Part shown: in pieces, positions 5,651 to 5,727 of the stretch | Numbering within the stretch: position 1 is the first letter of the stretch | How the letters are laid out: each line of letters opens with the position of its first letter | Source: a virus | Lineage: Duplodnaviria; Heunggongvirae; Uroviricota; Caudoviricetes | Virus record (IMG/VR): IMGVR_UViG_2563366830_000002 | Direction: 5' to 3' (one strand) | DNA length: 8,111 nt | Program-made: the position numbers and the translations under genes | The notes under the pieces: generated by a model | Told to the model about the DNA's origin: nothing | The model's database searches: none | Seen by the model: the letters and a program-made list of their open reading frames with translations, nothing else

Positions 5651-5727
5651 GTGGCATTAGCTCAGTCGGACAGAGCAACCGCCTTCTAAGCGGTTGGTCG
5701 CAGGTTCGAATCCTGCATGCCACGCCA
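5651..5727 (+). tRNA. tRNA-Arg (anticodon UCU), including 3' CCA
   Basis: Hand-folded cloverleaf: acceptor GTGGCAT/ATGCCAC (7 bp), D-stem GCTC/GAGC, anticodon stem ACCGC/GCGGT with loop CTTCTAA (U33, anticodon TCT at 5685..5687, A37), T-stem GCAGG/CCTGC with loop TTCGAAT, discriminator G, CCA encoded. Differs from E. coli argU as I recall it. Confidence 0.9.

Follow-up and report, generated by a model that had tools for sequence, protein, structure and literature searches.

An intact tRNA-Arg(UCU) gene in the analysed window (the whole stretch of phage DNA, 8,111 nt) is probably an AGA supplement of a temperate podovirus of the phiV10/epsilon15 type (Uetakevirus), carried as a module of a non-coding leader unit. 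By itself, the tRNA is an ordinary, already annotated rare-codon tRNA of a temperate phage, and both it and its position are known; the leader to which it is joined has neither an Rfam match nor a description in the papers searched. As read from the sequence, the unit runs from a repressor operator and predicted promoter through a ~240-nt pseudoknotted leader, a boxA-like stem, the tRNA and a hairpin to two terminators and a small ORF (Table 1). The first-pass annotation had reported the tRNA without this context, namely its embedding in a conserved structured leader under a promoter that is predicted to be controlled by the repressor.

Table 1. Features of the tRNA-bearing leader unit and their positions in the window
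Feature	Position	Strand	Basis
Predicted early promoter, TTGACA (5292-5297), 17 nt, TACCCT (5315-5320)	5292-5328 (with operator)	+	read by eye; homology to epsilon15
Leader core	5409-5581	+	covariation on 39 distinct sequences
P1	5411-5418/5424-5431	+	covariation alignment
P2 base	5440-5443/5484-5487	+	covariation alignment
Invariant 19-mer GGTAGCCGGAATGTGCAAG	5487-5505	+	homologue alignment
P3, variable hairpin		+	covariation alignment
P4	5530-5534/5540-5544	+	covariation alignment
Pseudoknot, P4 loop CACC with GGUG	5536-5539/5553-5556	+	covariation alignment
P5, loop GAAGAGA	5562-5566/5574-5578	+	covariation alignment
P6, stem GAUGAGAGCA (5586-5595) with UGCUCUCAGC (5638-5647), around slot A	5586-5650	+	54-variant table
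Slot A, variable insert within P6	5596-5637	+	variant comparison
tRNA-Arg(UCU), CCA encoded, in leader slot B	5651-5727	+	ARAGORN; Rfam; alignment to argU and relatives
Conserved hairpin AUCACG-CCUAAGGAC-CGUGAU after the slot	5730-5750	+	kept after tRNA and tRNA-like modules in relatives
Intrinsic terminator T1, 14-bp GC-rich stem and T run	5771-5812	+	prediction; homologues
Intrinsic terminator T2, 3′ end ~12 nt ahead of the 139-aa ORF start codon	5891-5913	+	retained in epsilon15
Accessory ORF, 139 aa, phrog_4846	5925-6344	+	only + strand ORF before the convergent terminase gene

ARAGORN returns the tRNA-Arg as the sole tRNA in the window, with the tct anticodon at position 35, and Rfam matches RF00005 over its full model length with all stems paired (5651-5724; score 73.3 bits, gathering threshold 29, E = 5e-15). 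The coordinates, strand, UCU anticodon, canonical cloverleaf and encoded CCA given in the first-pass annotation are correct. The 3′ end reads ...AUGCCAC-G-CCA, which places G at discriminator position 73 ahead of the encoded CCA. The tRNA had also been said to differ from the host gene argU, and a comparison with argU of E. coli K-12 bears this out: 63 of the 77 bases are identical (82%), and the differences in the stems are compensatory, the anticodon stem being ACCGC/GCGGU in the phage and ACGAC/GUCGU in argU; the 7-nt anticodon loop CUUCUAA and the entire T arm are identical. The D loop, AGUCGGACA, contains A20, and together with C35, U36 and G73 (A73 in relatives) this supplies every element of what we take to be the identity set of E. 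coli ArgRS, i.e., A20, C35, U36 and a purine at 73. The 31 tRNA instances obtained from relatives fall into 8 sequence variants, every one a tRNA-Arg(tct) according to ARAGORN, which differ only at positions 16, 17 and 20a of the D loop, position 48 of the variable loop, wobble-compatible positions of the acceptor 3′ strand and the discriminator (G/A). Since variation is confined to these few positions while the flanking DNA of the same relatives has diverged to ~70-75% identity, the tRNA is under purifying selection across the relatives.

The window is 96-97% identical to the Escherichia phages HEMP4, PAS61, phiV10 and TL-2011b and to O157 typing phages 9 and 10, relatives that belong to the genus Uetakevirus of epsilon15-like podoviruses. 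A prophage of E. coli MS 196-1 contains an exact copy (100% identity) of the 701-bp segment with the tRNA (5224-5924). In this prophage, the genes for the small and large terminase subunits, portal, protease and major capsid protein occupy the - strand, and the tRNA and one small ORF lie on the + strand, in the gap between the portal/gp3-like genes and the large terminase gene. This prophage has been crippled by IS3 insertions, with the tRNA unit left intact, and its integrase and guaA junction are located ~14 kb from the tRNA. For the relative vB_EcoP_ZX5, an attachment core at guaA and a single tRNA in the genome have been published (PMC9782041). A tRNA-Arg at the same position is already annotated in O157 typing phages 9 and 10, phiv142-3, SPN9TCW, SPC32H/N and the Klebsiella phage ST512-KPC3phi13.3. 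The RefSeq record of phiV10 is devoid of a tRNA annotation, and an antisense ORF, p04, is drawn across the tRNA instead; this ORF is probably spurious.

Upstream of the leader, an operator palindrome, TTACC-N5-GGTAA (5314-5328), overlaps the -10 element of the predicted promoter. The identical prophage has three palindromes of this type in the interval between cro and cI, and the homologous site of epsilon15 is annotated as a repressor binding site. Because the palindrome covers the -10 element and recurs at the repressor gene, the promoter unit is expected to be kept off in lysogens and to become active early. We infer that the promoter at 5292-5320 works. Its -10 element is weak, which speaks against the preferred explanation of the tRNA, and a sigma-70 consensus scan returned no site in 5000-6500, having missed the proposed promoter because its -10 matches at only 3/6 positions. 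Beyond the tRNA, terminators of the form GGCGGT...ACCGCC-TTTT, homologous to T1, follow the slot in lambdoid and Uetakevirus relatives. As T2 ends immediately ahead of the start codon of the accessory ORF, expression of the latter should require terminator read-through. Relatives have different ORFs at this position, which encode 123 aa in phiV10, 168 aa in SPN9TCW and, in a Klebsiella phage, a DUF2829 protein of 173 aa, and searches of Pfam and PHROGs with the neighbouring small ORFs gave no functional assignment.

A structured RNA of ~240 nt at 5409-5650 directly adjoins the 5′ end of the tRNA. An alignment of 39 distinct sequences led us to propose four helices and a pseudoknot, for which 93.5% of cells are paired, compared with 26-46% after a shift of the partners by 1-3 columns. 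Changes on both sides are found for 13 of the 26 pairs (93 cells), and none of 500 shuffles matched the observed pairing or covariation score. Examples include G-C and A-U at a ratio of 20:19 in P1, C-G and G-C at 23:10 in P5, and a pseudoknot pair that changes from C-G to A-U in four sequences. The frequent G-U pairs establish the + strand as the functional strand of the leader. The covariance model built for it, R1, scores 137 bits on the leader in the window, and cmscan of 5150-6000 on both strands at E ≤ 10 yielded no match in Rfam 15 to 5409-5650. Among homologues, 3-nt and 4-nt indels occur and hairpins vary in sequence without loss of pairing, so the leader region is considered non-coding; the ORFs at 5350-5613 (-), 5401-5559 (+) and 5499-5636 (+) cross these indels, and a coding upstream region was rejected in view of the compensatory helix changes. 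Mimicry of the 5′ region of 16S rRNA by the 5′ domain (UGCAAGUCGAGCGG versus UGCAAGUCGAACGG in 16S) was also rejected; the alignment score of 28 is below the shuffled mean of 34 ± 6, and the family conserves only ~8 nt of the motif.

The leader core is followed by stem P6, which shows compensatory changes among 54 variants (consensus AGUGCUCU(C/U)..GUUGUGG). Its 3′ strand is boxA-like and is succeeded by GUU and a boxC-like GUGG that overlaps the start of the tRNA. In tRNA-less Uetakevirus-like contigs, the homology to the window stops at ~5581-5606 and resumes at ~5713-5730, and here, as in many lambdoid copies, a tRNA-like scaffold replaces the tRNA. The scaffold reads GUGGUGAAU-GCGCA GGCUGA UGCGC-[53-150 nt cargo]-GCCGG AGAUCAGCA CCGG-(C)CACCAC and combines an acceptor-like stem, GUGGUGA/UCACCAC, with D-like and T-like hairpins, whose stems both covary and whose loops, GCUGAU and AUCAGC, are complementary. 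In three contigs, the cargo is a close mimic of helix 11 of 16S rRNA (Rfam SSU models, 31-38 bits, E = 2e-5 to 4e-7), and the P6 insert of one contig holds a complete hammerhead type I core, which in a local search scores 28.7 bits (E = 7e-5), below the gathering score of 34. All slot types then share the hairpin and the GC-rich intrinsic terminator that follow the tRNA in the window. From these comparisons, the tRNA is one swappable module of a conserved pseudoknotted non-coding RNA.

The leader is not confined to this phage type. In a blastn search with the intergenic region, ~245 nt of the window (5410-5654, extending into the start of the tRNA) have counterparts of ~82% identity outside the phage type, including lambdoid phages (cdtI, mEp460, Stx2c phages, Ayreon and 2H10), which are unrelated to it, and ~95-kb E. 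coli plasmids; most of the matching phage and plasmid records have no feature annotated at the match. Region 5224-5924 is matched in 1083 of 5426 complete E. coli genomes (~20%), and 501 of these have the full tRNA-bearing version. The invariant 19-mer occurs in at least 120 IMG/VR contigs and at 24 loci in GTDB species representatives, all from genera of Enterobacteriaceae except two MAGs, which are probably mis-binned. In lambdoid prophages, the leader lies immediately beyond a cI-type repressor gene (HTH plus Peptidase_S24), the terminator of that gene and OL-type operators, has the same orientation as the gene and precedes early-left genes (DUF2303/YfdQ-like, ParB-like). The order in mEp460 is the cI stop codon, the cI terminator, two TTGC-N7-GCAA operators like those of OR, the leader, a strong terminator and genes; by this position the leader holds the place of nutL and N, and no N-like gene was noticed in the early-left region of mEp460. 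A second copy on the PR (cro) side was found in none of the lambdoid loci, each of which has one copy, except for a single locus with two in tandem. In a P1-like plasmid, the first ~170 nt of the leader start 15 nt after a tRNA-Ile (CAU) and lie ahead of dnaB (P1 ban); no C1 operators were found near it, the only ones being ~2.9 kb upstream. The CPS-53 remnant of E. coli K-12, which carries homologues of the lambdoid early-left genes in its yfdQ region, has no leader copy, and epsilon15 has lost the leader core, tRNA and T1 by deletion.

The demand for the tRNA was estimated from codon counts in 43 intact prophage genes (8475 codons) and 42 K-12 genes (14790 codons), the host baseline being a 50-kb sample of K-12 rather than the genome of the actual host. 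Relative to this sample, AGA is used at 8.26 versus 1.22 per 1000 codons (odds ratio 6.8, Fisher p = 1.5e-16) and AGG at 4.13 versus 0.68 (odds ratio 6.1, p = 1.9e-8). The genes for capsid, cement, protease and portal and both terminase genes contain 0 or 1 AGA/AGG codon each, the tailspike gene contains 25, and most of the remainder are located in replication and accessory genes. Supplementation of AGA/AGG decoding by the phage tRNA is therefore plausible, yet not for the bulk virion proteins, whose genes are almost free of these codons. An earlier proposal that the tRNA boosts late-gene translation stands in part: the codons are enriched 6-7-fold over the K-12 sample and the tailspike is rich in them, but capsid, portal, protease and terminase have almost none, and any boost of late genes is limited to the tailspike because the demand sits there and in the replication and accessory genes.

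In the explanation we prefer, the operator/promoter unit would be silent in the lysogen and switched on by induction or infection. Cleavage by RNase P at 5650/5651 would release the tRNA from its precursor and at the same time define the 3′ end of the leader RNA, which would either render RNA polymerase resistant to Rho and terminators in a Nus/boxA-type manner or be a stable functional RNA in its own right. The tRNA would then supplement the scarce AGA decoder of the host during lytic growth, for the benefit of the tailspike, replication and accessory genes. Two further observations weigh against this explanation. The translational benefit may be small, since AGA/AGG codons are nearly absent from the abundant structural genes (capsid, portal, terminase). 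Moreover, relatives thrive with a non-decoding tRNA-like module in the slot, and epsilon15 lacks both core and tRNA, so decoding is dispensable for this phage type.

Such modularity also bears on a rival explanation, which we regard as unlikely though the best of the alternatives, that the tRNA is chiefly an RNA-processing or structural module, with AGA decoding as a by-product: either cleavage by RNase P and 3′ trimming at a tRNA-shaped element would fix where the leader RNA ends, or the leader would serve as a docking site for the elbow of the tRNA. The tRNA punctuation of MALAT1/mascRNA serves as a model. This is consistent with the non-decoding scaffold of variable cargo in the same slot of lambdoid and other Uetakevirus-like relatives, with the slot boundaries GUGG...CCAC that the scaffold shares with the tRNA acceptor stem, with the hammerhead-like core in the neighbouring slot of one relative, and with the tRNA-Ile upstream of the leader in the P1-like plasmid. 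However, the tRNA retains all its decoding and charging features (anticodon loop, A20, CCA), for which a pure processing signal would have no need, and the AGA/AGG enrichment of the phage suits a decoding role.

A clearly less probable alternative is that the tRNA acts in anti-defence, as a spare for host tRNA-Arg(UCU) once a nuclease that targets tRNAs has cut or depleted it in the course of infection. These hosts are not known to possess a nuclease that acts specifically on tRNA-Arg(UCU). The general hypothesis has been published (PMC10264068), rescue by a phage tRNA-Thr in P2-OLD defence offers a precedent (PMC12445682), and both the divergence of the tRNA stems from argU and the predicted early expression would fit. 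Nevertheless, evasion of tRNases has been proposed to proceed via differences from the host isoacceptor at recognition or cleavage positions of the anticodon loop (PMC10264068), and between the phage tRNA-Arg and argU the anticodon loop shows none. The anticodon stem of the phage tRNA even contains a paired CCG/CGG, the type of motif that P2-OLD cuts (PMC12445682) and that argU lacks. The suggestion in the first-pass annotation that the tRNA compensates for anticodon nucleases thus finds no support, as the loop is identical to that of the host.

We give slightly less credence again to a role in lysogenic conversion, in which the tRNA would be expressed from the prophage to aid host translation of AGA-rich, horizontally acquired genes. 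The presence of the tRNA-bearing version in ~9% of complete E. coli genomes and the preservation of the unit in an otherwise crippled prophage could be cited in its favor, but the sole plausible promoter is overlapped by the phage repressor operator, which predicts silence in lysogens. Finally, there is a negligible probability that the gene belongs to the host and marks an attB junction, or that it is an attP fragment that has been duplicated, even though argU is the integration site of many phages (the attP of epsilon34, for example, holds an argU 3′ fragment), given that the gene is complete, matches argU at only 82% identity, has phage genes on both flanks and lies deep within a prophage attached at guaA, with a different core sequence and with integrase and junction far away; the tRNA is therefore phage cargo, as had been supposed.

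Among known rare-codon tRNAs, the closest parallels are host argU and those of temperate coliphages, such as ileZ-argN-argO of Stx phages and tRNA-Ile/Asn/Thr of P1. The gene described here resembles them as a single AGA-decoding tRNA-Arg(UCU) with encoded CCA and the anticodon loop and T arm of argU, in the company of AGA/AGG-rich genes. It differs in sequence, not only from argU but also from the tRNA-Arg genes of Stx phages (~84-86% identity over 57 nt), and in setting, since it is located between packaging and head genes on the opposite strand instead of upstream of a toxin/lysis cassette and is joined to a structured leader.

As to the function of the leader itself, our leading hypothesis, which we hold tentatively, is a Nus/boxA-type, N-independent antitermination or anti-Rho element. 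It is the most economical reading because the leader is positioned right after repressor-controlled early promoters, the long transcript is untranslated, terminators precede promoterless ORFs, and an N-like gene was not noticed among the early-left genes of mEp460. The 3′ strand of P6 is boxA-like at 6/8 positions in the window (UGCUCUCA) and at 8/8 in many relatives (UGCUCUUU, equal to the first 8 nt of rrnH boxA, TGCTCTTTAACAA), and the UGUGG after P6 resembles the boxC that follows in the rrnH leader (TGCTCTTTAACAA...TGTGTGGG). Against antitermination stand the predicted base pairing of the boxA-like motif, the single leader copy per genome with none on the cro side, the dissimilarity to HK022 put and the fact that the unit in this phage meets the convergent terminase gene after a single ORF. 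Alternatively, the leader may be a processed stable RNA that acquires its ends through RNase P cleavage at the tRNA or tRNA-like module and has slots that deliver cargo RNAs, which accounts for the slot modularity equally well.

Several known RNAs invite comparison. The put RNA of HK022 is a cis-acting, protein-independent antiterminator (PMC9378689). Like put, the leader is a structured RNA placed right after a repressor-controlled early promoter and ahead of terminators; however, put is ~70 nt long, has two stems and occurs twice (PL and PR), whereas the leader spans at least 170-240 nt, includes a pseudoknot and occurs once per genome. Homology between the two was rejected, as model R1 found no match at E ≤ 10 in HK022 24000-33000, presumably the region of PL/putL and PR/putR. 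With nut sites and the rrn leader (boxB-boxA-boxC), it shares the boxA-like UGCUCU(C/U)(A/U) followed by (U)UGUGG, which resembles boxC UGUGUGGG, and, with rrn operons, tRNAs embedded in a long untranslated transcript; yet the motif lies in the conserved helix P6 instead of being single-stranded, the spacing from boxA-like to boxC-like element is 3-4 nt and not ~14, and neither an N protein nor a boxB equivalent has been identified for the leader. P1/P7 c4, P4 CI RNA and MALAT1-mascRNA are similar in having a tRNA-shaped element within a leader transcript that RNase P could cleave to defined ends. In contrast to c4 and CI RNA, the leader has no match in the Rfam C4 clan and its element is a true decoding tRNA; the C4 and isrK matches that Rfam gives in mEp460 are ~2 kb away on the other strand. 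ROOL and GOLLD are likewise complex structured prophage RNAs found repeatedly beside tRNA genes, but the leader is much smaller, restricted to Enterobacteriaceae and without similarity to them in Rfam.

It is possible, at somewhat below an even chance, that the leader defines a hitherto undescribed RNA class of enterobacterial phages, namely a pseudoknotted early-leader platform with two exchangeable slots that would act as an N-independent Nus/boxA antiterminator or as a processed cargo or decoy RNA. In this reading, the platform would be sited at PL of lambdoid phages, in the packaging/head gap of Uetakevirus and upstream of dnaB (ban) in the P1-like plasmid, and its slots would hold true tRNAs, tRNA-like scaffolds, the 16S helix-11 mimic and the hammerhead-like core, with tRNA-Arg as one cargo. 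No description of the leader was found in the literature searched, which covered tRNA-like elements, N-independent antitermination, boxA, mEp021 and Pas sRNAs in papers outside subscription.

For the phage, these results mean that the tRNA appears to be transcribed solely within a repressor-controlled structured leader, which is common to unrelated types of temperate phage and present in about one-fifth of complete E. coli genomes. The lack of an Rfam match and the absence of the leader from the one K-12 remnant checked may be why it has been overlooked. If the leader is indeed an N-independent antiterminator or an RNA-delivery platform, early gene control in lambdoid phages, a classic model system, would gain a new mechanism; the swapping of slots would explain the acquisition and exchange of some phage tRNAs, and the unit would constitute a natural 'tRNA-scaffold' expression system.

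The leader, the structured RNA lying directly 5' of the tRNA-Arg(UCU), has no match in Rfam over its ~240 nt and occurs across Enterobacteriaceae in elements of the lambdoid, epsilon15-like, and P1-like kinds; among complete E. coli genomes, 1083 of 5426 match it. Its extent varies among these relatives. The type phage, epsilon15 (L005:1812-1901), keeps only the first ~60 nt, a deletion having removed the rest of the leader core, the tRNA, and the intrinsic terminator T1, while the second terminator, T2, and the downstream ORF are retained. The P1-like plasmid p779-3 (L010:2911-3280) has just the leader's initial ~170 nt, upstream of dnaB (ban) and beginning 15 nt past a tRNA-Ile with a CAU anticodon; an annotated 48-aa "hypothetical protein" spans the leader in this plasmid.

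Features in and around the tRNA unit and at the left end of the window
Feature	Window position	Strand	Remarks
ORF, 260 aa	26-808	+	Overlaps minus-strand structural genes
Operator palindrome TTACC-N5-GGTAA	5314-5328		Overlaps the -10 of the tRNA-unit promoter
Structured RNA (leader), ~240 nt	5409-5650	+	Six helices and a pseudoknot; strong covariation
ORF, 83 aa	5657-5908	-	Antisense to the tRNA; corresponds to phiV10 RefSeq gene PhiV10p04
T2 and 139-aa ORF	5891-6344		T2 ends ~12 nt ahead of the ORF start codon

The cargo associated with the leader also differs between relatives. At the position equivalent to the tRNA (window 5651-5727), three relatives (L073:4600-4646, L104:3971-4017, and L100:1953-1999) have in its place a tRNA-like scaffold, the cargo of which closely mimics helix 11 of 16S rRNA (local matches to the Rfam SSU models, E = 2e-5 to 4e-7); one possibility is that this mimic serves as a ribosomal-protein decoy. 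In another relative (L062:384-430), the catalytic core of a type I hammerhead (CUGAAGAG...GAAAC...GUC) is present in full within the insert of the leader stem P6, equivalent to window 5596-5637; at 28.7 bits, it falls short of the gathering score that Rfam sets for this family, 34. In Phytobacter ursingii (L155:1186-1264 and L135:2210-2288), ARAGORN reports an unusual 79-nt "tRNA-Ile(AAT)" ~440 nt downstream of the leader, which may be another tRNA-like module.

The anticodon stem of the phage tRNA-Arg (window 5677-5693) reads ACCGC/GCGGU and includes a CCG/CGG motif in paired form; the stem of argU, the K-12 tRNA-Arg (ACGAC/GUCGU), lacks it. Paired CNG motifs of the CCG/CGG type are reportedly cleaved by P2-OLD (PMC12445682). 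In a spread sample of phage-collection matches, the closest sequences outside Uetakevirus come from myoviruses of marine Synechococcus, whose tRNA-Arg genes (S-RIM2, 92% over 65 nt) are nearer than those of Stx phages in the same sample (84-86% over 57 nt). This likeness is probably due to the shared consensus of tRNA-Arg(UCU) and not to gene transfer.

Three further copies of the operator palindrome lie between the cro and repressor genes (L003:28336-28500), and the homologous site is annotated as a repressor site in the epsilon15 record. Upstream of the leader core, a motif of the form GUCGUUAAAU-N(6-10)-GGAGUGCGCU(U/C)(U/C)CAG(G/U)UGUG recurs in the window (5365-5405), where the copy is degenerate, and in several relatives (e.g., L014 and L005:1768-1808). 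The motif resembles the 3' strand of P6 and, in lambdoid copies, is found again past the terminators; such motifs may be additional boxA/boxC-like sites.

At the left end, phage homology starts only at ~103 (window 1-110), and the first ~60 nt correspond, by coordinate offset to the identical prophage of E. coli MS 196-1, to the end of an IS3-family element. There, this element interrupts a tail gene, and the holin gene is split by another IS3, so that the MS 196-1 prophage is probably defective. The 260-aa ORF looks spurious. PhiV10p04 is also probably a spurious call, made, in all likelihood, because the phiV10 RefSeq record has no annotated tRNA.

The 139-aa ORF belongs to phrog_4846 and has no Pfam match. 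The ORF at this position varies among relatives, a Klebsiella phage encoding a DUF2829 protein there; since its identity differs between them, the position looks like a slot for variable accessory genes, with termination as the gate.
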